A stretch of DNA of 32,000 nucleotides from Thermodesulfobacterium commune DSM 2178 (GTDB lineage Bacteria; Desulfobacterota; Thermodesulfobacteria; Thermodesulfobacteriales; Thermodesulfobacteriaceae): contig NZ_CP008796.1 of assembly GCF_000734015.1 (NCBI RefSeq), positions 1,650,001 through 1,682,000 on the forward strand. The letters run 5' to 3'. A program made the position numbers and the translations under genes. The notes below the pieces were generated by a model. That model did not search any database. It saw nothing but the letters and a program-made list of their open reading frames with translations, and was not told where the DNA came from. The first letter of the stretch is position 1. Every line of letters begins with the position of its first letter. This document shows positions 1,777-21,261 of this stretch, one piece after another.

Positions 1777-2028
1777 ATGCAAGAAGAAAAAAAAGGTTTT
1801 TTTGATTATCAGGAAAACGTTAAGAGGTTTTTAAGAGGGTTTTATCTATTTTTGGTGCTGGTAGTTTTAATAGACCCTTTTATCCATAAACATGCTTATT
1901 TCGGTTTTGATGGTTATCCTTCTTTTTATGGAACCTTTGGTTTTGTAGCCTGTGTGTTGTTGGTGTTAGCAGCAAAGCACATTTTAAGGCCTCTGGTAAT
2001 GAGGAGGGAAGACTACTATGATGATTAA
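1777..2028 (+). CDS. Small two-TM membrane protein (83 aa), function unknown
   Basis: AAGGGGGG RBS lies 7 nt upstream of ATG 1777. Two hydrophobic helices are present (FYLFLVLVVLI, FGFVACVLLVLAA). Its 3' end overlaps the next gene by 11 nt. Confidence 0.65.
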   Translation: MQEEKKGFFDYQENVKRFLRGFYLFLVLVVLIDPFIHKHAYFGFDGYPSFYGTFGFVACVLLVLAAKHILRPLVMRREDYYDD

Positions 2029-3796
2029 CATACCCCCTGCACTCATCCTCATCTTTGGAAGTTTGTTAATCCCTTTTTTAAGAGGTAGGCTTAGGAGCGT
2101 TTATATAGTAGGATTACCGCTTTTGACTTTTTTCTATGTAATTAGTTTGTCAGAGGGTATCTCATGGGTTTTTAAGGTGCTTGATTTAGAGCTTGTTTTA
2201 AAAAGGGTAGACAGGTTGTCTTTGCCTTTTGGGTATATTTTTTCTTTAATTTCGGTTATAGCTGCCATCTACAGCCTTCATGTTAAAGACAACCTTCATT
2301 TAGTATCTGCTTTTATCTATGCAGGTGCAGCTTTAGGGGTGGTTTTCGCAGGAGACTTAGCTACACTTTATGTTTTCTGGGAGATTATGGCCTTAGCTTC
2401 AACCTTGGTCATCCTTACAGCTAGGAATAAAAAAGCTATCTCCGCAGGCATGAGATATCTGTTGGTTCATTTAGCCGGAGGTTTATTGCTTTTAGGTGGT
2501 ATGGTACTCTGGTTTAAACAAACAGGTTCTCTTAAGTTTGAATATATCGGGTTGAATTATCAAGATTTAGCTTCTTGGCTTATCTTTTTGGGTTTTGGGA
2601 TTAACGCTGCCTTTCCTATCCTTCATGCCTGGCTTCCTGATGCTTATCCTGAATCTACGGAAACAGGAACGGTCTTCCTTTCTGCTTTTACCACCAAGAC
2701 AGCAGTCTATGTTTTGGCAAGAGGTTTTTACGGGACAGAGCTTTTAATTTATATAGGGGCTTTGATGACCGCTTTTCCTATATTTTATGCCGTGATCGAA
2801 AATAATCTCAGGCGAGTGCTTTCCTATAGCCTTATAAACCAGGTTGGATTTATGATCACAGGTATTGGGATTGGGACCCAACTTTCTTTAAACGGTACAG
2901 TAGCCCATGCCTTTTGCCATATCCTGTATAAAGCCTTGCTTTTTATGTCTATGGGGGCAGTGCTTTATAGAACTGGGAAGATTAATGCCACTGACCTGGG
3001 GGGATTATATAAGTATATGCCTCTTACGACGATATTCTGTATCGTTGGTGCAGCTTCTATTTCTGGTGTTCCTTTAACCAGTGGTTTTGTTAGTAAGTCT
3101 ATGATAGTTTCTGCCGCTGGTGAAGGAGGAATGCTATTTATATGGTTGACGCTTTTATTTGCTTCTGCTGGTGTATTCCATCACTCGGGAATTAAAATTC
3201 CCTTTTTTGCCTTTTTCAGCCATGACTCTGGCTTAAAACCTAAGGAAGCCCCTACTCATATGTTGGTAGCCATGGGAATAGCGGCTTTTCTATGTGTGGC
3301 TATAGGTATTTTCCCTGGAACGCTTTATGGTATCTTACCTTATCCTGTAGATTATAACCCTTATACCCCAGCCCATGTAATCGATCAAACACAGCTTCTT
3401 GCTTTTTCGGCCTTAGCCTTTACCCTACTTATGCTTTCAGGCCTTTATCCTCCTGAAATCAGATGTGTAAACCTTGATACCGACTGGTTTTATCGCAAGG
3501 CCACAGCTGGGTTTTTGTTTTTGGCAGAAAAGGTGATCGCTAAGATAGACTACCAGATAATCGGTGAGGCTTACGAAAAAATCTTTGTAAGAGGTATGTT
3601 AGCCTTAGCAAGGCTTTCTAAAAAATTTGATACTTCTGGGGTTGACAAAAGTTATCATAACTTAGCCAAAGGATCTTTAAAGTTAAGTGAGATTATAAAA
3701 GTAATCCAAACAGGAAAGGTTTCAGATTATGCCTTTCTCATGATCATAGGTTTGATAACCCTTTTGTTAATTTTGGTTTTACCGATGCTTTCTTAA
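2018..3796 (+). CDS. Antiporter-like subunit with a NuoL-type C-terminal amphipathic (lateral) helix and a terminal TM anchor, 592 aa
   Basis: Core motifs are HAWLPDAYPESTETGTVFLSAFTTKTAVY, SLINQVGFMITG and HAFCHILYKALLFMSMG. The C-terminus has about 90 charged/amphipathic residues (YRKATAGF...IQTGKVSDY) followed by one TM (AFLMIIGLITLLLILVLPML), which mimics the NuoL HL+TM16 topology. Confidence 0.85.
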   Translation: MMINIPPALILIFGSLLIPFLRGRLRSVYIVGLPLLTFFYVISLSEGISWVFKVLDLELVLKRVDRLSLPFGYIFSLISVIAAIYSLHVKDNLHLVSAFIYAGAALGVVFAGDLATLYVFWEIMALASTLVILTARNKKAISAGMRYLLVHLAGGLLLLGGMVLWFKQTGSLKFEYIGLNYQDLASWLIFLGFGINAAFPILHAWLPDAYPESTETGTVFLSAFTTKTAVYVLARGFYGTELLIYIGALMTAFPIFYAVIENNLRRVLSYSLINQVGFMITGIGIGTQLSLNGTVAHAFCHILYKALLFMSMGAVLYRTGKINATDLGGLYKYMPLTTIFCIVGAASISGVPLTSGFVSKSMIVSAAGEGGMLFIWLTLLFASAGVFHHSGIKIPFFAFFSHDSGLKPKEAPTHMLVAMGIAAFLCVAIGIFPGTLYGILPYPVDYNPYTPAHVIDQTQLLAFSALAFTLLMLSGLYPPEIRCVNLDTDWFYRKATAGFLFLAEKVIAKIDYQIIGEAYEKIFVRGMLALARLSKKFDTSGVDKSYHNLAKGSLKLSEIIKVIQTGKVSDYAFLMIIGLITLLLILVLPMLS

Positions 3797-3808
3797 AGGG
3801 GTGAGTAG

Positions 3809-5275
3809 ATGGGTGAATTAGGCTTTCCAACCCTTTCTTTTCTTATTTTCTTTCCTTTGTTAGGGGCTGCTTTGATCTTTCTGGTTAAAAAAGAGAGTTT
3901 GGCTAAGTTTATTGCCTTAGGGACTACCCTGTTAAACTTGGTCTTTGGTATTCCTTTGTGGACAAATTTTGACAAAACCAATCCACAGTTTCAATTTGTA
4001 GAAACCTTTTGGTGGATTCCTTTCTTAAACGCTTACTATAAGGTCGGGATAGATGGAATAAGTTTACTTTTTGTTATGTTAACCCTTTTAATCAGTGTTT
4101 TATGTGTGTTGTGTTCCTGGACAGCTATTAAACAAAGGGTAAAAGAGTTTTATGCTTTACTTTTGATGATGGAAACCATCATGTTAGGTGTTTTTTGTGC
4201 GTTAGACATGTTTTTGTTTTATGTCTTTTGGGAAGCGATGCTTATCCCGATGTTTTTGCTTATAGGTATCTGGGGTAGTCACAACAGAATTTATGCCTCG
4301 GTTAAGTTTGTAATCTTTACCTTTGCTGGTAGTGTGTTGATGTTAATAGGAATTATCGTGCTTTATTATGCAGGAGGAAAGACTTTTGATGTCATAGAGC
4401 TTTCTAAAGTTCAATTGCCTGTAAACCTTCAATACTGGCTGTTTTTAGCCTTTTTTGTAGCTTTTGCCGTGAAGGTTCCCATGTTTCCCTTCCATACCTG
4501 GCTTCCTGATGCCCATACAGAAGCCCCTACCGCAGGTTCAGTGATTTTGGCTGGTATCCTTCTTAAAGTTGGGGCTTATGGATTTTTAAGGTTTACCATT
4601 CCTTTCTGTCCAGAAGCAACCCTTGGATTAAAAGAGATGATGCAAATAATTTCTGTTATAGCGATTATTTATGGAGCCTTAGTCACCCTTATGCAAACAG
4701 ACTTTAAACGTTTGATAGCCTATTCCAGTATAAGCCACATGGGTTTTGTTACGTTGGGTATCTTTACCCTAAATAAAGAAGCTATAGAAGGAGCGATCCT
4801 TCAAATGATCAATCACGGTATAGTAACTGGTGCACTTTTTATGTGTATAGGTGTTATCTACGAAAGAACACACACAAGAGACCTGAGTAAATATGGAGGA
4901 CTTGGAGAGGTTGTTCCGATTTTTGTGTTTTTTTATACCCTTTTTTCTGCGGCAGCCATAGGTTTTCCAGGCACTAACTCTTTTATAGGGGAATTTTTGA
5001 TAGCCCTTGGTGTTTTTAAAGACAGAATCCTTTTAGGAGCTTTTTTACCTCTGGGATTTGTCTTGGGAACCGCTTATATGGTTTGGCTTTATTATCGGGT
5101 TGTATTTAAAGAGGTGCCTGCTGAGATTAAAGACCAACTTTATGACCTCAACCTAAGAGAAGTGCTAATGTTTATACCTTTAGTGGTCTTGGTTTTTATG
5201 ATAGGTTTTTATCCCCAGGTGCTTTTAGGTGTGTTAAAGGACTCGGTGATACAAATCATCAATTTTCTAACCTAA
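3809..5275 (+). CDS. nuoM: NADH-quinone oxidoreductase subunit M
   Basis: FPFHTWLPDAHTEAPTAGSVILAGILLKVGAYGFLRF and LIAYSSISHMGFV are canonical NuoM motifs. It is 488 aa and sits directly before nuoN. Confidence 0.9.
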   Translation: MGELGFPTLSFLIFFPLLGAALIFLVKKESLAKFIALGTTLLNLVFGIPLWTNFDKTNPQFQFVETFWWIPFLNAYYKVGIDGISLLFVMLTLLISVLCVLCSWTAIKQRVKEFYALLLMMETIMLGVFCALDMFLFYVFWEAMLIPMFLLIGIWGSHNRIYASVKFVIFTFAGSVLMLIGIIVLYYAGGKTFDVIELSKVQLPVNLQYWLFLAFFVAFAVKVPMFPFHTWLPDAHTEAPTAGSVILAGILLKVGAYGFLRFTIPFCPEATLGLKEMMQIISVIAIIYGALVTLMQTDFKRLIAYSSISHMGFVTLGIFTLNKEAIEGAILQMINHGIVTGALFMCIGVIYERTHTRDLSKYGGLGEVVPIFVFFYTLFSAAAIGFPGTNSFIGEFLIALGVFKDRILLGAFLPLGFVLGTAYMVWLYYRVVFKEVPAEIKDQLYDLNLREVLMFIPLVVLVFMIGFYPQVLLGVLKDSVIQIINFLT

Positions 5276-5305
5276 GGCCTTTAGAAATAGTTTTAGGAGG
5301 TAACC

Positions 5306-6670
5306 ATGATAAACTTGACTCCGTTTTTTCCTGAACTTCTTTTTATAGGATTTACTTTGTTTTATTTTGTATTAGGCCTTTGGATAAAAAAAAGGGTGGT
5401 TCATTCCTTGCTGGTAATCGCTTTTTCTGTTTTAACTTTGCTTACGTTGTTTCAGGTTCAGGGAGAAGCCTTTAAAGGGATGTTTGTAGCTGATCCCTTT
5501 AGTCAAACCTTAAAACTTGTGTTTTTGATAAACTTAGGGATTTGTAGCCTTTTGGGTATGAATTACTCCCAGATAAAGGATGACCTCTTTTATGAGTTTA
5601 ACCTTCTTCTTATGCTTAGCACCTTAGGGATGATGTTTATGGTTTCTTCTAAGGAACTTTTAAGTCTTTTTCTTTCTTTAGAGTTTATGTCCCTTTGTCT
5701 TTATCTTTTGGCTGGTTTTGTGGTAACAGACCCTAAGACAAACGAGGCCTCACTTAAGTATTATCTCTTAGGTAGTATGTTTTCAGCCTTGTTGATTTTA
5801 GGGATTTCTATCTTTTACAGTATATTTGGAGGAACAACCTTTAAGATTATCGCTGAAAACCTTCCTTTGATGTCTCAACATCCGTTTTATCTTTTTACGG
5901 GAATTATATTGATCCTTTCTGCCTTTACTTTTAAGGCTGGGCTTGCCCCTTTTCATCAGTGGTCTCCTGATGTTTACGAAGGCGCTCCTACTCCGGTTAC
6001 AGCTTTTATGTCTGTAGGCCCTAAGGTTGCTGCCATAGGGGCTATGGCAAGTTTTCTCACCGAAGCTTTGTCTCAAAAACCTGAACTATGGGTAGGCCCT
6101 TTGATTTTTGTAGCCCTTTTAACCGCGGCCATAGGTAATATCTTAGCCTTAAGACAGGTCAATCTTAAACGTCTTCTTGCCTATTCTTCTATAGCCCATG
6201 CAGGCTATCTTTTACTTGCGGTTATAGCCTGCTCAACCTCAGGACTCAAGGCTATTTCTTTTTATGCCCTTGTATATACCTTTATGAACCTTGGTGCTTT
6301 TGCTACTCTTATTTCTTTTCCTCAAGGAGAAAGGATAAATGCCTTTTTAGGACTTTCTCAGGCTAACCTATTTTTAGCTATATCCATGTTAGTTTTCCTT
6401 TTTTCCCTGACAGGCCTTCCCCCTTTTGGTGGTTTTGTAGCCAAATTCTTTATATTTAAGTCTATCATAGAATCTGGATATACCTGGGTTGCGGTAATCT
6501 GTATTCTTTTCAGCATCCTTTCTGCATACTACTATCTAAGGGTAGGTGTAAAGATGTTTTTTTATGAAGGGCAAATCTCTATGCCTTCTATGGCTATATC
6601 TTTAAGATTGGTACTTGTTGTTGCCTTATGCTTTACCATTATCCTCGGGGTTTTCCCCTTTTTGCCTTAA
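5306..6670 (+). CDS. nuoN: NADH-quinone oxidoreductase subunit N
   Basis: APFHQWSPDVYEGAPTPVTAFMSVGPKVAA and LLAYSSIAHAGYLL are canonical NuoN motifs. It is 454 aa and is the last gene of the nuo-type arm. Confidence 0.9.
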   Translation: MINLTPFFPELLFIGFTLFYFVLGLWIKKRVVHSLLVIAFSVLTLLTLFQVQGEAFKGMFVADPFSQTLKLVFLINLGICSLLGMNYSQIKDDLFYEFNLLLMLSTLGMMFMVSSKELLSLFLSLEFMSLCLYLLAGFVVTDPKTNEASLKYYLLGSMFSALLILGISIFYSIFGGTTFKIIAENLPLMSQHPFYLFTGIILILSAFTFKAGLAPFHQWSPDVYEGAPTPVTAFMSVGPKVAAIGAMASFLTEALSQKPELWVGPLIFVALLTAAIGNILALRQVNLKRLLAYSSIAHAGYLLLAVIACSTSGLKAISFYALVYTFMNLGAFATLISFPQGERINAFLGLSQANLFLAISMLVFLFSLTGLPPFGGFVAKFFIFKSIIESGYTWVAVICILFSILSAYYYLRVGVKMFFYEGQISMPSMAISLRLVLVVALCFTIILGVFPFLP

Positions 6671-6706: not shown

Positions 6707-8665
6707 ATGGCCAATCTTTCATTAATTCAACAGTTAAAAAAGAGACTTTTTTACATTTCATTGATCTTCTTTTTGACAAGTGGCTTCTTTTTGTATGTGG
6801 TTACCAAACATTTTATCTATGCTAAGGATACAGAAAAACTTATTGGGATTCTTGCGAACGCGTATAAGATAACCATTAAAGATGAAGGAGAAACTCTTGC
6901 ATCCTATGCCTCCTTGTTGGCCAATAGAGCTGTCAGTGATGTTTATGTATCTTTACTTAAGGAAGCAGGTACCCTTTCTGAGGTAAATGATGCCAATAAA
7001 AAGATTTTCGAAAAGTATGGTCAGATCCTTCGTGAAACAGTTACCCCCCAGATTAAAGCAGCTGGATTAAGTAAATATCATATACATTTTCATCTCCCTG
7101 GCCCAAGGTCTTTTTTACGCTGGAACCGTCCTCAAGGGGAAGATGTAAAACTTGACGACTTATCCACTTTTCGTTTTACTGTAGCTAAAGTGCAGAAGGA
7201 AAAACAGCTTCTTACTGGACTTGAGGCAGGAAGAGACGGTCTTTTCCTTAGGGGTATTGCTCCTATAGTAAGAGATGGACAAACCATTGGTTCTGTTGAA
7301 TTGGGAATGAATCTTAGAGATTTAGTTAAAAATTTACAGTCTACTTATACTCAAATTTCCCATTATGTGATCCTTGTAAACAAGGACTTAGAAAAGATTA
7401 TGAGCCCTTATCTTGCTAAGGGTGAGGCCAAAGTCTTAGACAAAGGAATTCTTTATTCTAAAACCGAAAACATCGAAGAGAACTTACTAAAAAAGCTTAT
7501 TAATGCCAAAAAATACCCTGTGGAGGTTGGCTCTTTAGTTTTTCACGCCATTCCTCTTTATGATTATTCAAACAACCAGATAGGATTTATTATCATAGGT
7601 ATCAAGCGTGGAGAGATTATAAATCTTTTTCGTTTTAGCGGATTTATCTTGGGGCTTGTTGCCTTTGTGGTGTTTTTCTTTGGTTTTATGGTGATAAACA
7701 AAACCTTACAGAAAATCTCACAATCTTTGTCAGACACAACCAATATGGTAGAAGAACTCGGTAGAGGTGGAGGCGATTTAACCTTTAGATTTGAAGTTAA
7801 GTCTCAAGACGAGTTAGGAGTGTTAGCCTCTAAATTTAACCATTTCTTAGAAACTTTAGCTTCGATAGTTAAAAACCTAATAGAAAAGGCTGAGGATTTG
7901 TTTAGACTTTCTAAAAAACTTCAAGACGATGTAGACACCACCTTTAACTCTGTTAAGGAATTTACGGAAAAAGCAGACCTTATAAGTGCAAGTTCATCTG
8001 AGACCGTAGAGGTTATAAATAATGTGACCACTCAACTTGATGAGCTTACTAAAGCCATCAAAGAGATAAGCGAAAAAGCCCAGTTAAGCAAGTCAATCGT
8101 AGCTGATACTGCCAGAGAAGTAGATAAATCAAAAAATTTAGTAGAAGAGTTGATTTCATCTTCTTCAACGATCATAGAAGTAGTAGACCTGATTAAAGAT
8201 ATCGCAGACCAGACCAATCTTCTTGCCCTCAATGCATCGATTGAGGCAGCTCGTGCTGGGGAAGCTGGCAAGGGGTTTACCGTAGTAGCCAACGAAGTTA
8301 AAGAGCTTGCCAAACAAACACAAGTTGCTACAGAAAACATCAAGAAAAAGATCGACCTTTTATTACAGAATAGCAATTCAGTTGCTCATTCTGTAGGAAG
8401 TATCGTAGAAATGATGAAAAAAGTAGAAGAGGCATCGGTGGCTATCGCTGCAGCAGTTGAAGAACAGGCTATAGTTGTCCAAAACGTCTTTGAGCATATT
8501 ACTTTTGCCAGAGACAAAGTGCTTTTAAACGAAGACCACGCTCAAGCCATAAAGATTGGTGTAGAAAAATTGATTAGCTCTTCTCAAAAGCTTAAGGCAT
8601 CAGGTGAAGAAGTAGGAAGAATTGCTGAAGAGATTAAAGATATAGTTTCTCAGTTTAAGGTATAA
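6707..8665 (+). CDS. Methyl-accepting chemotaxis protein with a periplasmic Cache-type sensor, HAMP and MCP signalling domains
   Basis: N-terminal TM, then about 280 aa between the TMs with a Cache-like pattern ([15 protein letters not shown]...[10 protein letters not shown]...[17 protein letters not shown]). HAMP segment is [25 protein letters not shown]. The highly conserved MCP hairpin is [50 protein letters not shown]. Confidence 0.92.
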
Positions 8666-8718: not shown

Positions 8719-8742
8719 ATTTTATGTTTTATTTTATGTTTT
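8719..8742. repeat. Perfect 12-bp tandem duplication (ATTTTATGTTTT x2)
   Basis: Read directly: copies at 8719-8730 and 8731-8742. The second copy runs into the stop codon (TTA 8741-8743 on + = TAA on -) of the response regulator gene. Confidence 0.9.
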
Positions 8743-10102
8743 AATCTTTTTCCTCTTCTTCCTGGTTAGAAATTCTAGAAAGAAGCCCATGGTGTTTCAT
8801 CTTAGTCCTCAGTTGTTTTCTTGAGATGCCTAACAACTGAGCCGCTTTAGTTTGGTTCCATCCAGTTTCTTCTAATGCTTTAAGGATAAGACTTTTTTCC
8901 ATTTCTAATAAGTTTAAGGTATTTGAGGGAGAAATTTCTTTTTCTTTTGAGCCTAAAATTCTTTTTGGGAGATGCTTTAGGGAAATTACTCCAGAGGTAG
9001 AAAGAATAACCGCTCTTTCTATCACATGCATAAGTTCTCTTACATTGCCAGGCCATTCGTAGTTTATCAACATGTCCATCACCTCAGGTTCTACCATCGG
9101 TATAGGACGATTGTTTTCCTTAGCAAATTTTTGGACAAAATGCTGTATAAGAAGAGGAATATCTTCTTTTCTTTCCCTAAGGGGAGGTAGGTGCACCCTT
9201 ACTACGTTAAGCCTCCAGTATAGGTCTTCTCTGAAAGAGCCTTCTTTAACCGCGTTTTCGAGATCTCTGTTGGTAGCAGCAATCACCCTTACATCAACCT
9301 TGATTTTGTTAAGTCCTCCCAACCTTTGAAATTCCTTTTCTTGCAAGAATCTTAAAAACTTTTTTTGTAGACTTGTAGGTAATTCTCCTATCTCGTCTAA
9401 AAATACAGTGCCCCCGTTAGCTAACTCTAAAAGTCCTATTTTTTTCTCTGTAGCTCCGGTAAATGCTCCTTTTTCGTATCCAAAAAGTTCGCTTTCTAAA
9501 AGATTCTCTGGAAGGGTAGTGCAGTCAACCACTATAAACGGACGGTCTTTTCTTTTGGAGAGCCTATGGATTGCCCTTGCTATCAGTTCTTTACCTGTAC
9601 CAGATTCTCCAGTAATAAGCACGTTAGAGTTACTATCAGCTACCATTTCTATTATATAAAAAATTTCTTTCATTACCGAACTTTTAGCTATGATCTCTGG
9701 AAATTTATGAGAGATATCTTCTTTATAGTCTAATTTTTCATGTTTAGAGATGGCATCTTTGATTACCTCAACCAGAAGGTTAGGGTCAACAGGTTTTACC
9801 AGATAATGAAAAGCCCCTAATTTCATAGCCTCTACAGCTTTTTCGATCGTTCCATAAGCAGTAAGCATGATTACCGGCAATACGATGTTTTCTTTTTTTA
9901 GCCACCTTAACATTTCTATCCCATCCATCCCAGGAAGCCTATAATCGAGAAGTAGACAGTGAGGTTTGTGTTTTCTAAGCTGAAAAATACCCTCTTCTAC
10001 AGTTTGGGCGGTTATTATAGTGTAATCATGTTTTTTGAGGATGGTAGAAATGGTTTTTAGACTGTTTATCTCATCATCTATAAAAAGTATTTTATAGTTC
10101 AT
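8741..10102 (-). CDS. Sigma-54-dependent response regulator (NtrC/AtoC family: REC + AAA+ + Fis-type HTH)
   Basis: Receiver domain (LLLDYRLPGMDG). Walker A GESGTGKE. The GAFTGA sigma54-contact loop (YEKGAFTGA). C-terminal HTH (AAQLLGISRKQLRTKMKHHGL). Confidence 0.93.
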   Translation of the reverse strand: MNYKILFIDDEINSLKTISTILKKHDYTIITAQTVEEGIFQLRKHKPHCLLLDYRLPGMDGIEMLRWLKKENIVLPVIMLTAYGTIEKAVEAMKLGAFHYLVKPVDPNLLVEVIKDAISKHEKLDYKEDISHKFPEIIAKSSVMKEIFYIIEMVADSNSNVLITGESGTGKELIARAIHRLSKRKDRPFIVVDCTTLPENLLESELFGYEKGAFTGATEKKIGLLELANGGTVFLDEIGELPTSLQKKFLRFLQEKEFQRLGGLNKIKVDVRVIAATNRDLENAVKEGSFREDLYWRLNVVRVHLPPLRERKEDIPLLIQHFVQKFAKENNRPIPMVEPEVMDMLINYEWPGNVRELMHVIERAVILSTSGVISLKHLPKRILGSKEKEISPSNTLNLLEMEKSLILKALEETGWNQTKAAQLLGISRKQLRTKMKHHGLLSRISNQEEEEKD

Positions 10103-11693
10103 GCCTTATCGGGAGGAAAACTTTAAATTCTGTCCCTTCTTCTTTTTTACTGAAAACAGATATCTTGCCTCCATGTTCTCTAACGATTTTTTCTACACAA
10201 GCAAGTCCCAGTCCTGATCCTGTAACTTTAGTAGTAAAAAACGGTTCAAATACCTTATCTAACAACTCCTCTGGGATCCCTTCGCCGGTATCTTTTACAG
10301 AAATAACTACCAATCCCCCTTCTCTTTGTGTCGCAACCGAGATTTTATCTCCTTTTTTCGTAGCGTCTCCAGCGTTTACCAAAAGGTTCAACACCACCTG
10401 TTTGAGTTGATAGGGGTCAAAATAAAACTCAGGTATAGAAGGATCTAAACTTAATTCTATTTGTTTTCCTTCTTCTTCAAACTCAGGTTTCACCAAATTT
10501 ATTATTTCTTTTATGATATTATTAATCTGCGTTTTTTCAAGTTTTAAAGGAACAGGCCTTGCATAAGTTAAAAAACCGGTGATCAGTTCATTTAATCTTT
10601 GGGTTTCTTTGTCTATGATAGAAAGAAATTCCTGCAAAATTTTACCTTTAAAGTTGGTTTTAAGGTAAGAACAAGCAGCCTTAATAGAGTTTAACGGATT
10701 TTTGATTTCATGAGCAACCACCATGGCCATCTCTGAAACCGCAGAATATTTTTCAAGCTTAATTTTTTCTTTGGTGGCTTTATCAAGTTGTTCCATATAA
10801 GACCTTAGGTCTGCTACCATCTTATTAAAACTTTCTATTACATAACCTAACTCATCACCACATGAATACTTATAAACAAAACAGTCTTCACACTCAATTT
10901 TTAAAACACTCTTACACCATTTTTTCGAATCTTCGTTAAGCCAACATCTGGTTTTTCCGTAAGAAGGGCATTGATAATCTTTACACTGGTAAAAGTCTTT
11001 ACATAAAATAAGGTTTTCGTTTTCACAAAATTCAAACTCGTTAGCCTGCATTTTTTGAATACTTTTTTTAAGTTTGTTTAGTGGCTTGGTTAGGGTGATA
11101 GAAATAAAATAGGAAACTACAAGTGCTGCCAACAGAAACCCACCTGACACAAAAAGCATATAATTTTTTAACGTCCTTACGGATTGTTCTATAAAATCAT
11201 TGATGTCTGCCTCTGAAACTCCTACCCTAACCGCACCTAAAGAAAAGTCTTCCTTGAAAACCGGACGGTTAAAGTGTTTTATCCCATTATTATCTAAACT
11301 TTCCCAGGTTTTGAAGGTAGAATCATTTACAGGAATAAATTGGCCTAATTGAGAAGGGTTGGTATGGGCTACTATCCTTCCGTTTTTATCAACAACCATC
11401 ACATATACTATCCCTGGAAGGTTTTTTAGAGAACTTACCTTTTCTTCCAGTTTAAGAGGGTCAAAAAAGACCAACCAGTCTACCACCTCTAAAGAAAAGT
11501 TTTCTAAGTTATGGTTTAGTCCTTCATAATATTGTTTTTTTAAGGAGTTTTTTTGGTAGTTTATTATCAAAACATTTACGCTAAAAAGTAATAAGGTTAT
11601 CAAAAACAAAAAAGAAAGAAAGATTCTGCTTTTAATGCTAAAACTTCTTAAAAGTTTATAAAAAGGTGATAAAAAATCTTTACGGATTAACAT
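10092..11693 (-). CDS. Sensor histidine kinase: 2 TM, periplasmic sensor domain, HAMP split by a Cys-rich insert, HisKA and HATPase_c
   Basis: TM1 IFLSFLFLITLLLFSVNVLII and TM2 FVSGGFLLAALVVSYFISI. HAMP halves are TKPLNKLKKSIQKMQANEFEF and GDELGYVIESFNKMVADL. H-box VVAHEIKNPLNSI, N-box LLVNAGDAT, G-boxes DTGEGI and GSGLGL. The stop overlaps the RR start by 11 nt. Confidence 0.92.
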   Translation of the reverse strand: MLIRKDFLSPFYKLLRSFSIKSRIFLSFLFLITLLLFSVNVLIINYQKNSLKKQYYEGLNHNLENFSLEVVDWLVFFDPLKLEEKVSSLKNLPGIVYVMVVDKNGRIVAHTNPSQLGQFIPVNDSTFKTWESLDNNGIKHFNRPVFKEDFSLGAVRVGVSEADINDFIEQSVRTLKNYMLFVSGGFLLAALVVSYFISITLTKPLNKLKKSIQKMQANEFEFCENENLILCKDFYQCKDYQCPSYGKTRCWLNEDSKKWCKSVLKIECEDCFVYKYSCGDELGYVIESFNKMVADLRSYMEQLDKATKEKIKLEKYSAVSEMAMVVAHEIKNPLNSIKAACSYLKTNFKGKILQEFLSIIDKETQRLNELITGFLTYARPVPLKLEKTQINNIIKEIINLVKPEFEEEGKQIELSLDPSIPEFYFDPYQLKQVVLNLLVNAGDATKKGDKISVATQREGGLVVISVKDTGEGIPEELLDKVFEPFFTTKVTGSGLGLACVEKIVREHGGKISVFSKKEEGTEFKVFLPIRHEL

Positions 11694-13335
11694 ATCTTTT
11701 TATAGGTTCAAATTCTTTATCTTCCACAGGTTTAAATTTTTTTACTTTCAGGTTTTTCAGGATAGAAGCAGGTAGATGAATGAGTGATTCTTGGACTTTT
11801 TTGGCAAGGTCCTTGTCTGCTTTAACCACCGCCCATGGCCAGTTTGGTAAAAACTCTGTTGGGGTCAAAACTTTTATCTGAGAAAGATCTACTTCTTTTC
11901 CAAAAACACCAAGAGCTGCCTCTCTTATGAACCCTGCGTCTGCTTCTTTTTTATACACCCCGATGATTACCCTTTCTTGCCTTTTTACATCTACTAACCG
12001 AAAATCTCGCCTTAAATTGTATCCTCTCTTTTCTAAATAAATTTTTTGCGAAAGAAATCCTCCAGCAGAATAGGGAGAAACTATGAAAATTCTTTTGTTT
12101 TTTAAATTTTCTATCTTTTTAATCGGGCTATCTTTTCTTACGATAATAACACCTCTAAACCTGTCTCCTCCACATACCTCACTTGGTTCATCTATACAAT
12201 CTTCTCCCACAGTTAGGGCTATGGCTTTTGCATGCCCAGATTTCGACAGAAGAGCATAAACATAGGGATTTTGATAGGCAAAGTGTACTTCTTTTTTCTT
12301 TACTAAGGTGATAAATTCTTCGAAATTTTTAGGGATGACAATTTTAAACTCCTTTCCTGTCTTTTCTGAAAGATACTTCATCAAAGGATCAAACCTCTGA
12401 TAGATAGTAAGCGGACTGTAAAGAGGTAAAATGGCAACCTTTATGGTATCAGGCCCGTATTTTATTAAATCCTTTCCTTTAAATAATTTTATCAGTACTC
12501 TTATGTAGTCAAAGTCTCTGTCTTCAGCAGGCACAAGTTTTTCTATCTGCAGGTTAGTTAAAACCTCTTTAGGAAGAGACACAAGGATTTCTTTTAATAA
12601 CTGTTTCTCTTTTAAAGCAGAGGTTGAAGCAATCAAAAATACAGGCACTTTTTCAGAGGACTTTATTACTTTAAGACCTGAGGTTAAATAAGGTTTGGCT
12701 ATCGATTCACTTAAGGCTCCTACCTCATAATCTCCTATCAATACAGAGAGAGCAATCCTTTTTTCCTGACCTAAAAAATCTACCTTAGAAAAGTCTTTTA
12801 AAGAAAGTTCTAAGTCTTTTAGCATGGACAAAGGGATTAGATAACTGAAAGAAGAATTTTTATCCCCTAAGGCAAGCCGTTTGTTAACAGCATCAAAAAT
12901 CCTTTCTATTCCTGAATTTTCTTTGGTTACAAAAATGCTGCTTGCCTCTCCCTGTCCTCCCTTGGGCTTAACTAGAGGAAAAATCTTTTGAGGATAAAGG
13001 GCCTTTAATTCGCAGTAAAAAGCTGGGTCTATCATTAGAAGATGTAGTTTATCCTCTGCCACTTTTTGGGTTAGCTCTTCAAAGTTGGCTGAGATGTCTA
13101 TCGAAACAGGTTTTTTAAGTTGATTTTCTAAATAGGTTTTTAAAGGATAAAGCTGTAAAAAGGTTTGTTGAGGAGAGCTTACGTTTAAGACCCCTATAAC
13201 TAAAGGAGGTCCGTTTAAAACCTCCGAGGGCTTATTTTCCTGAGTTTGTCTTCCTTTGTCTTTAAAACACCCGGATAATAAAAACCCTAAGAAGATGGTT
13301 AAAAATAGAGCCCAAAACCTATTTCTTTTTAACAT
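11680..13335 (-). CDS. Lipoprotein with two tandem PhnD-like (phosphonate/oxyanion ABC-type) periplasmic binding domains
   Basis: Signal peptide plus lipobox (FLGFLLSGC). Two repeats of the PhnD-like pattern occur, for example domain 2: YQNPYVYALL...FRGVIIVRKDSPIKKIENLKNKRIFIVSPYSAGGFLSQKIYLEKRG...EADAGFIREAAL. It is 551 aa, about twice a single PBP. No ABC permease or ATPase is nearby. It overlaps the HK start by 14 nt. Confidence 0.8.
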   Translation of the reverse strand: MLKRNRFWALFLTIFLGFLLSGCFKDKGRQTQENKPSEVLNGPPLVIGVLNVSSPQQTFLQLYPLKTYLENQLKKPVSIDISANFEELTQKVAEDKLHLLMIDPAFYCELKALYPQKIFPLVKPKGGQGEASSIFVTKENSGIERIFDAVNKRLALGDKNSSFSYLIPLSMLKDLELSLKDFSKVDFLGQEKRIALSVLIGDYEVGALSESIAKPYLTSGLKVIKSSEKVPVFLIASTSALKEKQLLKEILVSLPKEVLTNLQIEKLVPAEDRDFDYIRVLIKLFKGKDLIKYGPDTIKVAILPLYSPLTIYQRFDPLMKYLSEKTGKEFKIVIPKNFEEFITLVKKKEVHFAYQNPYVYALLSKSGHAKAIALTVGEDCIDEPSEVCGGDRFRGVIIVRKDSPIKKIENLKNKRIFIVSPYSAGGFLSQKIYLEKRGYNLRRDFRLVDVKRQERVIIGVYKKEADAGFIREAALGVFGKEVDLSQIKVLTPTEFLPNWPWAVVKADKDLAKKVQESLIHLPASILKNLKVKKFKPVEDKEFEPIKRYVNP

Positions 13336-14257
13336 CTTCTAAATACTCTCTAACGCTAAGTGCGGCTACAGCGCCCTCACCACAGGCAATCACTATTTGC
13401 CTAAAGGGTTTACTAACGCAGTCTCCACAGGCAAAAATTCCCTTCTGAGAGGTTTCCATCTTTTTATCTGTAATTATAAAACCGTTAGGGTCTAACTCTA
13501 CGAAACCTTTTAACCAAGAGGTATTAGGCTCATATCCTATAAAAATAAAGACCCCAGAAACTTCTAAATATTTTAGTTCTCCTGTTTTTTTATCTAAAAC
13601 CTTTATCCTTTCTACCTTGTGTTTTCCTTCGATAGCCTCTACGGTCGAGTTCAAGATTATCTCAATCTTAGGGTTTTTAAAAACCAAATTTTGCAAATAG
13701 GCCTCAGCCCTAAACTTATCTCTTCGGTGAATTAAAAAAATCTTCTTTACAAACTTGGTAAGTTCTAAGGCTTCTTTAAGAGCCGAATCTCCACCTCCTA
13801 CTACAGCCACCATCTCATCCTTAAAAAAAGGTCCGTCACAGGTAGCACAAAAAGAAACTCCCTTGCCTATCAATTCCTTTTCCCCAGGAATACCTAATTT
13901 TTTAGGGGATGCCCCTAAAGCTAAGATCACCGCATAACTTAAAACGTAGGTCTTGTCAGAAAACCAGATTTTAAAAAGTTCCTGTTCTTTTTCTATACTA
14001 ACGACTTCTTTTGATAATAAGTTCAACCCTAATCTTTCTACTTGCTTAACCATCTTTTCTATCAAGTCAAACCCTGATATACCTTCAGGAAATCCGGGAT
14101 AGTTTTCTATCTGTTCTGTAAGGACTACCTGACCACCTAAAAAGTTTTTTTCTATAAGTAGAGTGTTTAGCATCCCCCTTTGAGCATAAAGATAGGCAGT
14201 AAGACCTGCAGGCCCTCCACCTATTATGGTTAGATCATAAGTAGTTTGTTGGGTCAT
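13319..14257 (-). CDS. trxB: Thioredoxin-disulfide reductase (low-Mr type)
   Basis: FAD site IIGGGPAGLTA, redox-active CATCDG, NADPH site VVGGGDSALKEA and HRRDKFRA. It is 312 aa. Its 3' end overlaps the PBP start by 17 nt. Confidence 0.92.
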   Translation of the reverse strand: MTQQTTYDLTIIGGGPAGLTAYLYAQRGMLNTLLIEKNFLGGQVVLTEQIENYPGFPEGISGFDLIEKMVKQVERLGLNLLSKEVVSIEKEQELFKIWFSDKTYVLSYAVILALGASPKKLGIPGEKELIGKGVSFCATCDGPFFKDEMVAVVGGGDSALKEALELTKFVKKIFLIHRRDKFRAEAYLQNLVFKNPKIEIILNSTVEAIEGKHKVERIKVLDKKTGELKYLEVSGVFIFIGYEPNTSWLKGFVELDPNGFIITDKKMETSQKGIFACGDCVSKPFRQIVIACGEGAVAALSVREYLEDVKKK

Positions 14258-14329: not shown

Positions 14330-15088
14330 ATGTGTAAAGAATGTGGGTGTGGATTGGTTAATCATCCTTCAGAAGGATCGGAAAAACATCATGAACACCA
14401 CCATGGACATACCCATTCCAAGGAAACCTTGCAACTTCTTGAAGACATCATGAAATATAACGAATTTCAGGCAAGACATAACAGGGAACATTTTGAAGAA
14501 TATGGAATTTACGCCATAAACCTTATGAGTGCCCCAGGTTCTGGGAAAACTACCTTGTTAGAAAAAACTATAGAACTTCTTTCAGGAAAGTTAAGGATTG
14601 GGGTGATAGAAGGGGACTTAGAGACAGAAAGAGACGCTGAAAGGATAAGGAAAAAAGGAGTCCCTGTGTATCAAATAACCACAGGCAGTGCCTGCCATTT
14701 AGACGCCTCTTTAATTCATAAAGCTATGCATAAACTTCCGATGGATCAGATCGACCTTCTTTTTGTAGAAAACATAGGGAATCTTGTTTGTCCTGCAAGC
14801 TATGACCTTGGCACCCATCTTAACGTCACCCTTCTTTCAGTGCCTGAAGGAGAAGACAAACCAGAAAAATATCCTCTTATTTTTAAGGTTTCTCAGTTGG
14901 TGGTTATCACCAAGATAGATTTGCTTCCCTACTTTGACTTTGACCTGGAAAAGGTAAAAGCCCAGATACAAAAGATCAATCCTAAGGCTCAGATTATCGC
15001 CCTTTCTGCCAAAACAGGAGAAGGGTTTGACCTTTGGGTTAAATTTTTAGAGGATTCCTATAATCAACATAAAAAATCTCTCAGATAG
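14330..15088 (+). CDS. hypB: Hydrogenase nickel-incorporation GTPase HypB
   Basis: N-terminal CxxCGC (MCKECGCG), His-rich stretch (HHEHHHGHTH), P-loop GSGKTTL, and a CH motif region (TGSACHLDA). Confidence 0.95.
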   Translation: MCKECGCGLVNHPSEGSEKHHEHHHGHTHSKETLQLLEDIMKYNEFQARHNREHFEEYGIYAINLMSAPGSGKTTLLEKTIELLSGKLRIGVIEGDLETERDAERIRKKGVPVYQITTGSACHLDASLIHKAMHKLPMDQIDLLFVENIGNLVCPASYDLGTHLNVTLLSVPEGEDKPEKYPLIFKVSQLVVITKIDLLPYFDFDLEKVKAQIQKINPKAQIIALSAKTGEGFDLWVKFLEDSYNQHKKSLR

Positions 15089-15098
15089 AGGAAAGGTT

Positions 15099-16109
15099 AT
15101 GGGAGTTGAAAAACTTTTGTTAGCTCATGGAGGAGGCGGAGAGGAAACCTTATCTTTGATAAAAGATTTTATTCTCAAATATTTTACCAACCCTATTCTT
15201 GAGCCTCTTGAAGATGCAGCTTTACTAACCAATCAAATTTCTCGATTGGCTTTCACCATAGATGGTTTTACCGTAAAACCTATCTTCTTTAAAGGTGGCA
15301 ACATAGGAAAACTTGCTGTAACTGGCACGGTAAATGATTTAGTGGTAATGGGGGCTAAACCTTTATATCTTACGGTAGGTTTTATCATCGAAGAAGGGTT
15401 TAAAATCAAAGATTTAGAAAAGATTTTACAGTCTATGCAAGAAGAGGCCATAAAAAACGAAATTTACATCGTGGCAGGAGATACAAAAATCGTACCTAAG
15501 TCAGAGGTAGACGGTATTTTTATCACAACCTCAGGTATAGGAGAGGTGATTTATTCAGGCATTTCTTGTAAAAACCTAAAACCAGGAGACGTTATCTTGG
15601 TTTCTGGCCCTATAGGAGACCATGGGGCCTGTATTTTGGCAGAAAGAGAAGGTATAAAAGTAGACATAGAGTTAGAAAGTGACTGCGAAACCCTTTGGCC
15701 TGTGTTAAAACCCCTTTTTGAAAGTGGGATTGAAATCCATGCGATGAGAGACCCAACCCGTGGAGGATTAGCCGCTAATCTTCATGAATGGGCTTATAGT
15801 TCTCAGGTAAATCTGGTGGTAGAGGAAGAAAAAATTCCTGTGAGGCCTCAGGTAAAGGCCTTTTGTGAGGCCCTTGGATTTGAGCCTTATCATTTAGCCT
15901 GTGAAGGAAGAGTAGTAATAGCCTTACCAGAAAAAGATGCCGAAAAGGCTTTAGAAATTTTAAGGTCTCATCCATCTGCAGCTGAAGCTAACATCATAGG
16001 ACAGGTGTTGGACCATAGTTCCTCTCCTCAAGTATATCTCAAAACACTGTATGGCACTCATAGGGTTTTAGAAAATACCTCAGGAGAACTCTTCCCGAGG
16101 ATTTGTTAG
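15099..16109 (+). CDS. hypE: Hydrogenase maturation (carbamoyl dehydratase) protein HypE
   Basis: AIR-synthase-like fold motifs are present. The C-terminus ends ...GELFPRIC, the conserved HypE PRIC motif. It is 336 aa. Confidence 0.93.
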   Translation: MGVEKLLLAHGGGGEETLSLIKDFILKYFTNPILEPLEDAALLTNQISRLAFTIDGFTVKPIFFKGGNIGKLAVTGTVNDLVVMGAKPLYLTVGFIIEEGFKIKDLEKILQSMQEEAIKNEIYIVAGDTKIVPKSEVDGIFITTSGIGEVIYSGISCKNLKPGDVILVSGPIGDHGACILAEREGIKVDIELESDCETLWPVLKPLFESGIEIHAMRDPTRGGLAANLHEWAYSSQVNLVVEEEKIPVRPQVKAFCEALGFEPYHLACEGRVVIALPEKDAEKALEILRSHPSAAEANIIGQVLDHSSSPQVYLKTLYGTHRVLENTSGELFPRIC

Positions 16110-16118
16110 GTAAAGCCT

Positions 16119-16469
16119 ATGCATGAGTTTTTTATCGTTCAAAACGTGATAAAAACCGTAGAAGACTTGATGGTTAATCACCCTAAGAAAAAAGTAGTAA
16201 AGGCGGTTTTGTTAATAGGAAGATTTTCTGGGGTTGAGCCTGAGTTATTACAAACCGCCCTTGATTTTTTTAAACAAGGAAGCGTTTTAAAAGATGCAGA
16301 AATCGTGATAGAAATAGAAGACCTTAGGATGAGATGTCAGAAATGTCAGCAAGAATTTTCAAAAGAGAAATGGGATCTTACCTGTCCTTTTTGTGGCTCT
16401 TTTGAAACTGAGGTTCTTTCAGGAGAAGAGATGTTACTCAAAAGCTTAGAACTGGTCGATGAGGATTAG
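16119..16469 (+). CDS. hypA: Hydrogenase nickel insertion protein HypA
   Basis: N-terminal MHE nickel site. Zinc site CQKCQ...CPFCGS. It is 116 aa. Confidence 0.92.
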   Translation: MHEFFIVQNVIKTVEDLMVNHPKKKVVKAVLLIGRFSGVEPELLQTALDFFKQGSVLKDAEIVIEIEDLRMRCQKCQQEFSKEKWDLTCPFCGSFETEVLSGEEMLLKSLELVDED

Positions 16470-18711
16470 ATACCGGATCAGGATAAACGGGGTAGTCCAG
16501 GGGGTTGGTTTTCGCCCTTTTGTGTATAACCTTGCTAAATCCTTAGGGTTGACAGGTTTTGTCAGCAACGATACCAACGGAGTTTTTATCGAGGTTGAAG
16601 GCAACGAGGATACTCTGCAGGATTTTTTAGAGAGGTTAGTTAAAGAAAAACCCCGGCTTTCGCAAATTTACCGTGTGGTTCATGAAAAACTTCCCTCTGT
16701 AGGCTATGAAGACTTTTTGATTAAAAAAAGCCTTAAAGATGAAGAGATAACCTTAGACATCTTGCCTGATGTAGCTACCTGTGAATTTTGTTTAGAAGAA
16801 CTGTTTAATCCTTCAGACCGAAGGTATCGATATCCCTTTATCAACTGCACCCTTTGTGGACCAAGGTTTACCATCATAGAGAGTTTACCTTATGACCGAG
16901 AAAAGACGGTGATGAAAGAATTTACGATGTGTCCTGCATGTTTTGAAGAATATACCGATCCTACTGATAGGAGGTTTCATGCCCAACCTATAGCTTGCCC
17001 GATCTGTGGCCCTCAGCTTGAATTCTATGATCTTAAACGAAACAAGCTGGCAGAAAAGGAAGAGGCTTTATATCAAGCCATAGAAAAAATAAAACAGAAA
17101 AAAATAGTAGCTGTCAAAGGTTTAGGAGGATTTCATCTTGTCTGCGATGCTACAGACAGAGAGGTGGTAAAACTTTTAAGACAAAGAAAGAGAAGGTCTA
17201 AAAAGCCTTTAGCTGTGATGTTTAAGGATTTAGTCCAGTTAGAAGAATATTGTTTGGTTACCTCTCAGGAAAAGGAGCTACTTTTATCTCCTTCTCAGCC
17301 GATAGTCCTTTTAGAAAAAAAAAGTAAGCTTTTACCTGAGGAAATAGCCCCAGGATTAAAAAAAATAGGAGCTTTTTTGCCCTACACCCCTTTGCATCAC
17401 TTAATTCTAAAAGAGATAGACCTTCCTTTGGTGGTTACCTCTGCCAACCTTTCAGATGAACCTATAGTGATAGACAACGAAGAGGCCTTTAACAAACTTT
17501 CCTCCCTTGCAGATTACTTGCTTCTTCATAACCGAAAAATCCTAAGAAGAGCTGATGATTCGGTGGTAAAAGTAATAGCTGGTGGTCCTGTTTTTATAAG
17601 AAGGGCAAGAGGTTATGCACCCTTGCCGGTTTTTCTTCCCTTTAACGTAAAAAAACGGGTACTTGCGGTAGGTCCCAGGGAAAAAAACACCTTTGCCCTT
17701 GCCTTTCAAAACAAAATAGTGCTAAGTCAGCACATCGGAGACATAGAAACCTTAGAAGACCTAAAAGATTTCGAAAAAACCCTTTTAGACTTTACCAAAC
17801 TTTATGAGTTTGAACCTGAGGTAGTAGTAGCTGACCTCCATCCTTTTTATGAGACTACTAAATGGGCAGAACGTTTTGCCAAAGAACAGGGGCTTGAACT
17901 TATAAAGATACAGCATCATTTTGCCCACATCCTTTCTTGTATGGCAGAAAACGGGATCTTTGATGAGGTTTTGGGGGTTGCCTGGGATGGTACAGGATAT
18001 GGAGAAGACCATACCGTTTGGGGAGGAGAGTTTCTCGTAGTAAAAGGGAATAAGTATCAGAGGGTTGGCCATTTTAAGCATTTTAGGTTAATAGGAGGAG
18101 AAAAAGCGGTAAAAGAACCTAAAAGAGTAGCCTTAAGTTTGATGTTTGAACTTTTAGGAGAAAAAACTTTCGACCTCTCCTTACCTTTTTTAAAAGAGTT
18201 TACCAAACAGGAGTTGACACTTCTTTATCAAGCCTGGAAAAAGGGTATAAATTCACCCTTAACCTCTTCTTGTGGAAGGCTTTTTGATGGGGTGGCTGCG
18301 CTAACAGGTTTAAACTTTGTTAACCACTATGAGGGAGAGTCTGCGATGCAGTTAGAAGACCTATTTTTGTATGATTTAGAAGATGCTTACGCAATAAGAA
18401 TAGAGGAAAAAGAAGAAATCCTGATTTTTGACTGGGAAAGTATGATAGAAGAGATTGCCTTTGGAAAAGAGCCTTTACCAGTAAAAGCTACCAAATTTAT
18501 CAACACTTTGGCTAAGGTTTGCGAAGAGATAGCTACGAGAATAGGGATAGAAAAGGTATGTCTTTCTGGTGGGGTTATGATGAACAAGCCTCTGGTAGAA
18601 AGGGTTAGAGAAAGGCTTTCTAAAAAGGGATTTAAGGTCTATCTACAAAGAAAAGTTCCTCCCAACGACGGAGGTCTTTCTTTGGGACAAGCTCTATATC
18701 CCAATCTTTAA
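16459..18711 (+). CDS. hypF: Carbamoyltransferase HypF
   Basis: Acylphosphatase domain (INGVVQGVGFRPFVY), two zinc-finger pairs (CxxC...RYRYPFINCTLCGPRF; CPACFEEY...RRFHAQPIACPICGP), a YrdC-like region, and a Kae1-like C-terminus ending PPNDGGLSLGQA. It overlaps the hypA stop by 11 nt. Confidence 0.95.
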   Translation: MRIRYRIRINGVVQGVGFRPFVYNLAKSLGLTGFVSNDTNGVFIEVEGNEDTLQDFLERLVKEKPRLSQIYRVVHEKLPSVGYEDFLIKKSLKDEEITLDILPDVATCEFCLEELFNPSDRRYRYPFINCTLCGPRFTIIESLPYDREKTVMKEFTMCPACFEEYTDPTDRRFHAQPIACPICGPQLEFYDLKRNKLAEKEEALYQAIEKIKQKKIVAVKGLGGFHLVCDATDREVVKLLRQRKRRSKKPLAVMFKDLVQLEEYCLVTSQEKELLLSPSQPIVLLEKKSKLLPEEIAPGLKKIGAFLPYTPLHHLILKEIDLPLVVTSANLSDEPIVIDNEEAFNKLSSLADYLLLHNRKILRRADDSVVKVIAGGPVFIRRARGYAPLPVFLPFNVKKRVLAVGPREKNTFALAFQNKIVLSQHIGDIETLEDLKDFEKTLLDFTKLYEFEPEVVVADLHPFYETTKWAERFAKEQGLELIKIQHHFAHILSCMAENGIFDEVLGVAWDGTGYGEDHTVWGGEFLVVKGNKYQRVGHFKHFRLIGGEKAVKEPKRVALSLMFELLGEKTFDLSLPFLKEFTKQELTLLYQAWKKGINSPLTSSCGRLFDGVAALTGLNFVNHYEGESAMQLEDLFLYDLEDAYAIRIEEKEEILIFDWESMIEEIAFGKEPLPVKATKFINTLAKVCEEIATRIGIEKVCLSGGVMMNKPLVERVRERLSKKGFKVYLQRKVPPNDGGLSLGQALYPNL

Positions 18712-19162
18712 GTTGAGAAACCACCGCTTCAATCAAAGGGATAAAATTAGCCTTTACTGAAGGAGAAAGTTCATACCTCATCTCAAGGCTTTCAGGTTCT
18801 AACCCTAACACCACAAGCTCCTCAGGAGAAAAACCTCTCATCTCAGCTAAGGTGAGTATGTCTAAAAAACTTACCTCGTGGATGGAGAGTTTTTCAAGAA
18901 TCTGTTTAGGTAGGGTGTCTTTAGTAAATTTGTGAAGGGTGCCAGGAGGACTTCCTTTTGCGATGGCATCTATTACCAAAAGTCTTTTGGCTTTTTCTAT
19001 GTAAGGAAGTAGTTGAAAACTCCCTACTCCTCCGTCAACAAGCTCCACCTTTTCAGAAGGAACTTCAAAAAACTCTTCCAAAACCTTAACTGCTAAAACT
19101 CCTATCCCTTCGTCTGCAAGTAAAACATTCCCTATCCCTAATACCACAACTTTATCCATCAT
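18632..19162 (-). CDS. Hydrogenase maturation endopeptidase (HyaD/HybD/HoxM family)
   Basis: N-terminal VVLGIGNVLLADEGIGV (the GxGNxxxxD[DE]GxG motif), LLVIDA, and the HEVSFLDIL His motif. It is 176 aa. The last 80 nt overlap the hypF 3' end on the opposite strand. Confidence 0.88.
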   Translation of the reverse strand: MMDKVVVLGIGNVLLADEGIGVLAVKVLEEFFEVPSEKVELVDGGVGSFQLLPYIEKAKRLLVIDAIAKGSPPGTLHKFTKDTLPKQILEKLSIHEVSFLDILTLAEMRGFSPEELVVLGLEPESLEMRYELSPSVKANFIPLIEAVVSQLKDWDIELVPKKDLRRWEELFFVDRP

Positions 19163-21259: not shown

Positions 21260-21261
21260 AA

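Follow-up and report, generated by a model that had tools for sequence, protein, structure and literature searches.

A sensor histidine kinase of the thermophilic sulfate reducer Thermodesulfobacterium commune DSM 2178 carries a small cysteine-rich module in the connector of its HAMP domain, between the helices AS1 and AS2. The kinase is encoded on the minus strand of a 32,000-nucleotide stretch of the genome (NCBI RefSeq assembly GCF_000734015.1, contig NZ_CP008796.1, positions 1,650,001 to 1,682,000). This whole stretch is called the window, and all coordinates refer to it. The module is a discrete cytoplasmic unit that occupies the C-terminal half of the HAMP connector. Its position, conservation, homology, modularity and confident, compact predicted fold are documented below. 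We infer metal binding, the identity of the metal and a sensory role: somewhat probably, the module is a metal-thiolate input, with iron-sulfur (Fe-S) or zinc as its metal, that biases AS2 from the cytoplasmic side.

Placement of the module within the HAMP domain

The domains of the kinase are arranged in the order transmembrane segment 1, periplasmic sCache domain, transmembrane segment 2, HAMP domain with the nested Cys module, HisKA and HATPase_c. The gene and its parts are the following.

10092-11693, minus strand: sensor histidine kinase gene, 533 residues (open reading frame and Pfam domains)
11556-11624, minus strand: transmembrane segment 1, residues ~24-46 (Kyte-Doolittle scan)
11181-11465, minus strand: periplasmic single-Cache domain sCache_3_2, residues 77-171 (Pfam PF17203, 31.5 bits against a 28.4-bit cut-off)
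11097-11162, minus strand: transmembrane segment 2, residues ~178-199 (Kyte-Doolittle scan)
11028-11096, minus strand: HAMP helix AS1 with the beginning of the connector, residues 200-222, TLTKPLNKLKKSIQKMQANEFEF (Pfam HAMP; AlphaFold helix)
10860-11027, minus strand: Cys-rich module with nine Cys, residues 223-278, a diverged two-CW domain (homologues, profile-profile match, AlphaFold)
10881-11003, minus strand: invariant core of the module from C231 to C271, with C231, C237, C242 (in CP), C250-W251, C260 (usual, not invariant), C268 and C271 (alignments)
10806-10859, minus strand: HAMP helix AS2, residues 279-296, GDELGYVIESFNKMVADL (DExG...FNxM motif; Pfam HAMP after trimming; AlphaFold helix)
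10557-10736, minus strand: HisKA phospho-acceptor (DHp) domain, residues 320-379 (Pfam PF00512, 47.7 bits)
10104-10418, minus strand: HATPase_c catalytic (CA) domain, residues 426-530 (Pfam PF02518, 96.4 bits)

Since transmembrane segment 2 lies at residues ~178-199 and HisKA and HATPase_c follow further on, the module is on the kinase-domain side of the membrane, which is the cytoplasm. The initial annotation had placed it there, and this location holds: hydropathy finds two transmembrane segments, and the module is on the same side as both kinase domains.

The Pfam HAMP model (PF00672) has a cut-off of 25 bits. In the intact kinase, positions 2-25 of its 53 match residues 197-220 with 19.7 bits, and the score stays below the cut-off because only AS1 aligns. 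Cutting the insert in silico to connector length yields a match to positions 2-52 of 53 at 25.8 bits, and a second in-silico excision matches positions 5-52 at 25.9 bits, both above the cut-off. AS1 (TKPLNKLKKSIQKMQ...) carries the usual HAMP Pro, and AS2 carries the canonical DExG...FNxM motif. The order of the elements also fits a HAMP domain, with transmembrane segment 2 at ~178-199, AS1 from residue 200, and AS2 at 279-296 leading to HisKA at 320. As an internal control, the ordinary, uninterrupted HAMP domain of a chemoreceptor encoded in the window (6707-8665) scores 35.9 bits. The HAMP connector, usually ~12 residues long, is enlarged in the kinase by a folded module of 48-56 residues just ahead of AS2. 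It had been proposed from the sequence that the two HAMP helices flank the insert, and the end-to-end Pfam HAMP match obtained once the insert is excised supports it.

Cysteine content and conservation

The minus-strand translation of 10857-11033 corresponds to residues 221-279, EFCENENLILCKDFYQCKDYQCPSYGKTRCWLNEDSKKWCKSVLKIECEDCFVYKYSCG. Residues 223-278 (C223 to C278) contain nine Cys separated by gaps of 7, 5, 4, 7, 9, 7, 2 and 6 residues, exactly as the initial annotation had described. The whole kinase has 11 Cys, and its other 477 residues carry just two. Against a background of 1.2% Cys, the mean of the large open reading frames in the window, nine or more Cys within 56 residues have a probability of ~2.6e-8 per stretch.

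Homologues were collected with phmmer from 1.84 billion representative proteins, using residues 196-305 as the query. The scan returned 41 proteins at E<=1e-3, a result that underestimates both the size and the taxonomic range of the family, as the query is one diverged sequence. One of the 41 matches, P0027, was discarded as a repetitive false positive. Across the 44 modules of alignment A1, C231, C237, C242, C250, W251, C268 and C271 do not vary, at least 90% of the modules keep P243 and V273, and C260 is usual across the family, not invariant. The invariant columns of another alignment (A2) likewise cover the module core.

A genome scan seeded with a 7-sequence subset yielded 66 loci, skewed to one kinase subfamily, and 65 orthologous kinase loci among them were used for comparison of the module. 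The cysteines C1 to C7 are present in all 65, C8 (C278 in the window) in 61, and a Trp after C1 in 49. A Cys just upstream of C1 (C223 in the window) occurs only in five Thermodesulfobacterium/Thermodesulfatator loci. The same five loci have a C4-C6 spacing of 16 residues, and 59 loci have a spacing of 21. Sister species have a module of 96% identity, and a Thermodesulfatator metagenome-assembled genome (MAG) has one of 75% identity; every Cys is kept in both. As the Cys framework is kept in the orthologues and the derived features are confined to five loci, the module is a conserved domain and the window copy belongs to a derived clade. The nine-Cys motif proposed earlier is thus upheld in the conservation of its cysteines among homologues, but not in their number: the conserved core has 6-8 Cys, not nine. 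C223 and C278 flank the module. Since a nested domain has to bring its two ends near each other, we speculate that these residues might make up an additional pair.

Relationship to the two-CW domain family

A search of a word-indexed database with a 128-residue fragment found no homologue. A profile of the module, searched in the same way, returned only proteins of 76-115 residues that have the same Cys framework and form a stand-alone family. This family is described by NCBIfam NF045718, 'two-CW domain-containing protein', a domain model of 80 positions with a cut-off of 35 bits. Against it, stand-alone proteins reach 73-112 bits and consensus-like modules embedded in HAMP reach 37.8-46.8 bits; at E<=0.01 it is matched by 39 of the 44 modules. 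Alignment of the 44 embedded modules (A1) with 39 stand-alone proteins (A4) by hhalign gives a probability of 99.5% and an E-value of 3.8e-22. Seven Cys and two Trp are invariant in the stand-alone set, and C231, C237, C242, C250, C260, C268 and C271 of the window kinase align with the conserved Cys of both sets.

The window module and NF045718 share the order C-x5-C, C, CW, C, C-x2-C-x-V-Y. They differ in the C2-C3 spacing, which is ~14 in the stand-alone proteins and 4 in the window copy and the HAMP-embedded form, and the window copy has an extra N-terminal Cys unlike the members of NF045718. Orthologous kinases in the same operon have canonical two-CW modules at the same position. By descent, the insert is a derivative of the two-CW lineage and not a model-passing member. 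It is called a diverged derivative because it fails both the hidden Markov model cut-off and the first CW.

The initial annotation knew of no functional characterization of the module. Full-text literature searches for two-CW or NF045718 indeed found no function, structure or publication, although the domain has already been named as an NCBIfam family. A literature search on cysteine-rich or connector insertions in HAMP and on Fe-S sensor kinases returned nothing relevant.

Predicted structure of the module

An AlphaFold2 monomer model of residues 197-309 was built on 40 homologous segments. With the HAMP flanks it has a mean predicted local distance difference test score (pLDDT) of 92.6 and a predicted template-modelling score (pTM) of 0.82; for the module alone the pLDDT is 79.8. 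In the model, a helix at 198-216 corresponds to AS1. The module is predicted to be compact and mostly non-regular; its short helices span 231-234 and 254-264. Directly behind the C268-x2-C271 pair another helix begins, at 272-278, and beyond a Gly-Asp break the long helix of AS2 and the stalk covers 281-308. Such a coil-rich module with short helices is typical of metal-knuckle folds. A structure prediction had been suggested in the initial annotation, and the one obtained with the HAMP flanks is a confident, compact fold. Foldseek found no match in the PDB for the module-only model.

The module projects from the side of the HAMP bundle in a way that could also suit a docking surface for a partner protein or the membrane, which would itself bind no signalling ligand or cofactor. 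Conserved surface aromatics (W251, Y245 and Y274) could make such an interface, and stand-alone two-CW proteins could compete or pair with the module. Across architectures, however, the module has no conserved partner gene beside it, and the neighbours that the kinase does keep are a periplasmic binding protein and a response regulator. We regard a docking surface as very unlikely.

Occurrence across proteins and taxa

The two-CW module, a recurrent domain of ~60 residues, is carried by several classes of signalling proteins. These include membrane histidine kinases like that of the window, methyl-accepting chemotaxis proteins (e.g., P0012, P0018, P0022, P0035, P0036 and P0041), GGDEF proteins (P0014 and P0015), HD-GYP proteins (P0010, P0037 and P0038) and hybrid kinases (P0019 and P0033). 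Short cytoplasmic kinases of ~345 residues (P0007 and P0008) start directly with helix, module and AS2. Natural soluble versions of the module thus exist in these kinases and in the stand-alone two-CW proteins of ~100 residues. Tandem module units are found in P0009, P0014, P0015 and P0040.

With the module excised in silico, the Pfam HAMP model recognises 26 of 40 units (best E-value 1.1e-13). The other 14 are mostly cytoplasmic, and their N-terminal helix (...RFENPxLVKCWE) is not a canonical AS1. The module is therefore usually, not always, located in a HAMP domain or a HAMP-like hairpin. The remaining units are mostly cytoplasmic ones of helix, module and AS2, and the module also occurs in a putative GAF-like region and as a stand-alone protein. 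It is portable and, in some enzymes, the sole N-terminal element, as an input domain would be.

The HD-GYP proteins have a second two-CW copy (P0010, residues 226-313; P0037, 370-457; P0038, 369-456) with a long C5-C6 loop and no following AS2-like helix. By eye, the flanks of this copy look like a putative GAF-type domain. If that is right, the module can nest in hosts besides HAMP. Two stand-alone two-CW proteins that are unrelated to each other, P0059 (locus L067, 6001-6321) and P0047 (locus L068, 6001-6318), are each encoded immediately upstream of a glycogen/starch phosphorylase gene (PF00343) that has the same orientation, and this neighbour may hint at a role of the free-standing form.

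In the loci sampled, which are biased towards one kinase subfamily, the named carriers of orthologous kinases all come from anaerobic lineages: Thermodesulfobacterium, Thermodesulfatator, Thermodesulfovibrionia/Nitrospirota, Desulfobulbaceae and Syntrophobacter. The initial annotation had mentioned a similar Cys pattern in signalling proteins of sulfate and metal reducers, and it does recur in those of sulfate reducers and related anaerobes.

These distributions bear on whether the module could be a purely structural zinc knuckle or metal clamp. Such a clamp would stiffen or enlarge the HAMP connector, e.g., to raise thermostability or to lock the bundle in a single state, and would sense nothing. 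A small fold with little regular secondary structure and invariant Cys is typical of structural Zn sites, the eight Cys conserved in orthologous kinases are enough for two Cys4 sites, and the kinase already owns a periplasmic sensor. Against this, the module is the sole N-terminal element of several cytoplasmic kinases and GGDEF proteins. Its appearance in tandem arrays, within another domain and on its own is how an input module behaves, not a brace, and many carriers are not thermophiles (e.g., groundwater Nitrospirota and Desulfobulbaceae MAGs). A structural clamp that senses nothing is thus unlikely.

Operon and genomic context

The kinase gene belongs to a string of four minus-strand genes that overlap end to end from 8741 to 14257, with overlaps at 13319-13335, 11680-11693 and 10092-10102. 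The other three genes of the string are the following.

13319-14257, minus strand: TrxB-like (thioredoxin-reductase-like) flavoprotein with a CATC motif, first gene of the string (Pfam Pyr_redox_2)
11680-13335, minus strand: secreted double PhnD-like (Phosphonate-bd) solute-binding protein, upstream of the kinase gene and overlapping its start (Pfam PF12974, 296 bits over 2 stretches)
8741-10102, minus strand: NtrC-type sigma-54 response regulator with REC, AAA+ and HTH_8 domains, downstream of the kinase gene and overlapping its stop (Pfam domains)

The double PhnD-like protein is likely a periplasmic co-sensor. The gene order binding protein, kinase, regulator is kept in ~50 loci of Thermodesulfobacteriota, Nitrospirota/Thermodesulfovibrionia, Syntrophobacter and others, and of the 66 loci, nearly all have a sigma-54 regulator next to the kinase. 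In the Desulfobulbaceae loci the kinase is short and cytoplasmic, starts with helix, module and AS2, and comes after the regulator. With the kinases of T. thermophilum DSM 1276 and T. hveragerdense DSM 12571, the window kinase shares 95-96% identity; the PhnD-like protein beside it is 100% identical to its T. thermophilum DSM 1276 counterpart. A scan of the window for the sigma-54 promoter consensus gave matches no commoner than chance.

The TrxB-like gene at the head of the string raises the question of a metal-free thiol/disulfide switch that would toggle AS2 and might be serviced by the co-transcribed thioredoxin reductase. Kinases controlled by disulfides, such as ArcB, are established, and the Cys density of the module is high. 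The TrxB-like neighbour is, however, kept only in the two closest genomes (loci L001 and L002) and not in ~60 other loci, and 6-8 invariant Cys with CP, CW and CxxC in a coil-rich fold of 50 residues suit metal ligation over a single redox pair. We give such a switch a slim chance. A functional link to TrxB as a conserved feature was rejected, since the neighbour is confined to those two genomes.

Other genes of the window surround this operon. A chemoreceptor gene with a dCache_3 sensor (6707-8665, plus strand; its HAMP domain served as the control above) adjoins the two-component operon convergently, and it is preceded by four consecutive genes for Proton_antipo_M membrane subunits of the NuoL/M/N or Mrp type (135-6670, plus strand). 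A [NiFe]-hydrogenase maturation cluster at 14330-19162 comprises plus-strand genes for a HypB-like GTPase, HypE, HypA and HypF and, at 18632-19162 on the minus strand, a gene for a HycI-type maturation protease. Further along, on the plus strand, 20171-23136 encodes a 362-residue protein whose N-terminus bears a methylation motif like that of type IV pilins, followed by a 624-residue open reading frame that has no Pfam match, and 26827-28032 encodes a Mutator/IS256-family transposase (PF00872, 214 bits).

Proposed function

A metal, Fe-S or thiol switch that gates the kinase, as put forward in the initial annotation, is plausible. Metal ligation by the module is suggested by the 6-8 conserved Cys in ~50 coil-rich residues and by the CP, CW and CxxC motifs. 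The restriction to anaerobes and the wide deployment of the module as an input speak for a labile Fe-S centre; Zn is the alternative. More generally, the two-CW domain may represent a new class of cytoplasmic Fe-S or metal-thiolate sensor of redox state or gases that acts inside the HAMP connector, a broader proposal that we hold tentatively and with some doubt.

In the proposed mechanism, the insert would be an autonomous mini-domain, stabilised by metal-thiolate bonds and nested in the HAMP connector of an sCache kinase. Its conserved Cys would hold the cofactor, most likely one or two Fe-S clusters, or else Zn. C268 and C271, the last two of these ligands, cap the short helix that runs via the Gly-Asp kink into AS2. 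Loss or oxidation of the cofactor, or binding of a ligand, could then alter the pull or rotation on AS2 and shift the HAMP bundle between signalling states. This shift would in turn alter autophosphorylation by the DHp and CA domains and phosphotransfer to the sigma-54 regulator encoded by the adjacent gene. The kinase would combine a periplasmic signal, received by sCache and the double PhnD-like protein, with the redox or metal state of the cell interior.

Several observations weigh against a metal-thiolate input in the window kinase. The Cys spacing of the module fits no classical Fe-S or Zn motif. Neither the window module nor the whole kinase matches NF045718 even at E<=1, and the window copy also misses a profile built from the stand-alone proteins. 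The first CW is replaced by C231-K232, which leaves only C250-W251, and the C4-C6 loop is 5 residues shorter than in the orthologues. The window copy is the most diverged in the family and could have lost or changed its function. The module alone has no Pfam match at E<=10 (there is no Pfam model for the two-CW domain), and neither its sequence nor its profile found a match in a PDB sequence search. With the flanked model, the best two Foldseek matches in the PDB are structures of the Af1503 HAMP domain (2L7I and 3ZRW) at E ~5.7, with a template-modelling score of 0.70 normalised to the 58-residue target, a match that is not significant and was obtained with a monomer model as the query. The taxonomic sample is biased as well, as the search pattern was aimed at one kinase subfamily.

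The same divergence, and the failure to match NF045718, could also point to a lineage-specific, low-complexity stretch of no function, which the initial annotation had named as grounds for rejecting its claim. The Cys framework is nevertheless invariant across phyla and architectures and the predicted fold is confident, which makes non-functional filler hardly credible. A low-complexity or chance origin was rejected on conservation and Cys statistics.

A metal-thiolate input at this position would have consequences beyond a single kinase. A folded, cofactor-type connector domain would be a direct handle on HAMP conformational signalling and a new way for a single receptor to merge outside and inside signals. 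Signalling proteins of sulfate reducers, Nitrospirota and other anaerobes often contain the module, and if it senses as proposed, anaerobes would widely make their kinases, chemoreceptors and cyclic di-GMP enzymes conditional on intracellular redox state. For genome annotation, diverged copies escape NF045718, the only existing model, and push the enclosing HAMP domain below the Pfam threshold.

Comparison with known systems

Small cytoplasmic modules that bind metals are known from other signalling proteins. The Fe-S sensor kinases NreB and AirS and the small Fe-S sensors FNR and WhiB-like proteins have labile Cys-ligated centres that report O2, NO or redox state, and they are found in or near two-component systems. 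The two-CW module shares the concept only. Its cofactor is putative, it has no sequence or motif similarity to these proteins, and their clusters sit in PAS or dedicated domains, not in a HAMP connector. The chemoreceptor zinc-binding domain CZB (PF13682) is a four-helix bundle with a His3Cys Zn site, located at the C-terminus of its proteins. It is a small cytoplasmic metal-thiolate sensor module and, like the two-CW module, is common to chemoreceptors and diguanylate cyclases, but the two differ in fold and position, and the window module has no Pfam match to CZB. Models of ferredoxin-type Fer4, zinc ribbon and CZB domains likewise gave no Pfam or PDB match to the module.

Arrays of consecutive HAMP domains, such as those of Aer2, offer a comparison for the tandem carriers P0009, P0014, P0015 and P0040, in which two helix, module and AS2 units follow one another. 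Unlike in poly-HAMP arrays, each of these units holds a Cys module and its N-terminal helix does not score as AS1. The HAMP domain of the window kinase itself resembles a canonical one (PF00672) in that it directly follows transmembrane segment 2, has the AS1 Pro and the DExG...FNxM motif of AS2, and leads to the DHp helix. In the literature searched, there seems to be no description of a cofactor-type domain nested in a HAMP connector. HAMP domains are normally regarded as relays between sensor and output. If the two-CW module is indeed a sensor, the HAMP domain would become an input site of its own instead of a passive converter.

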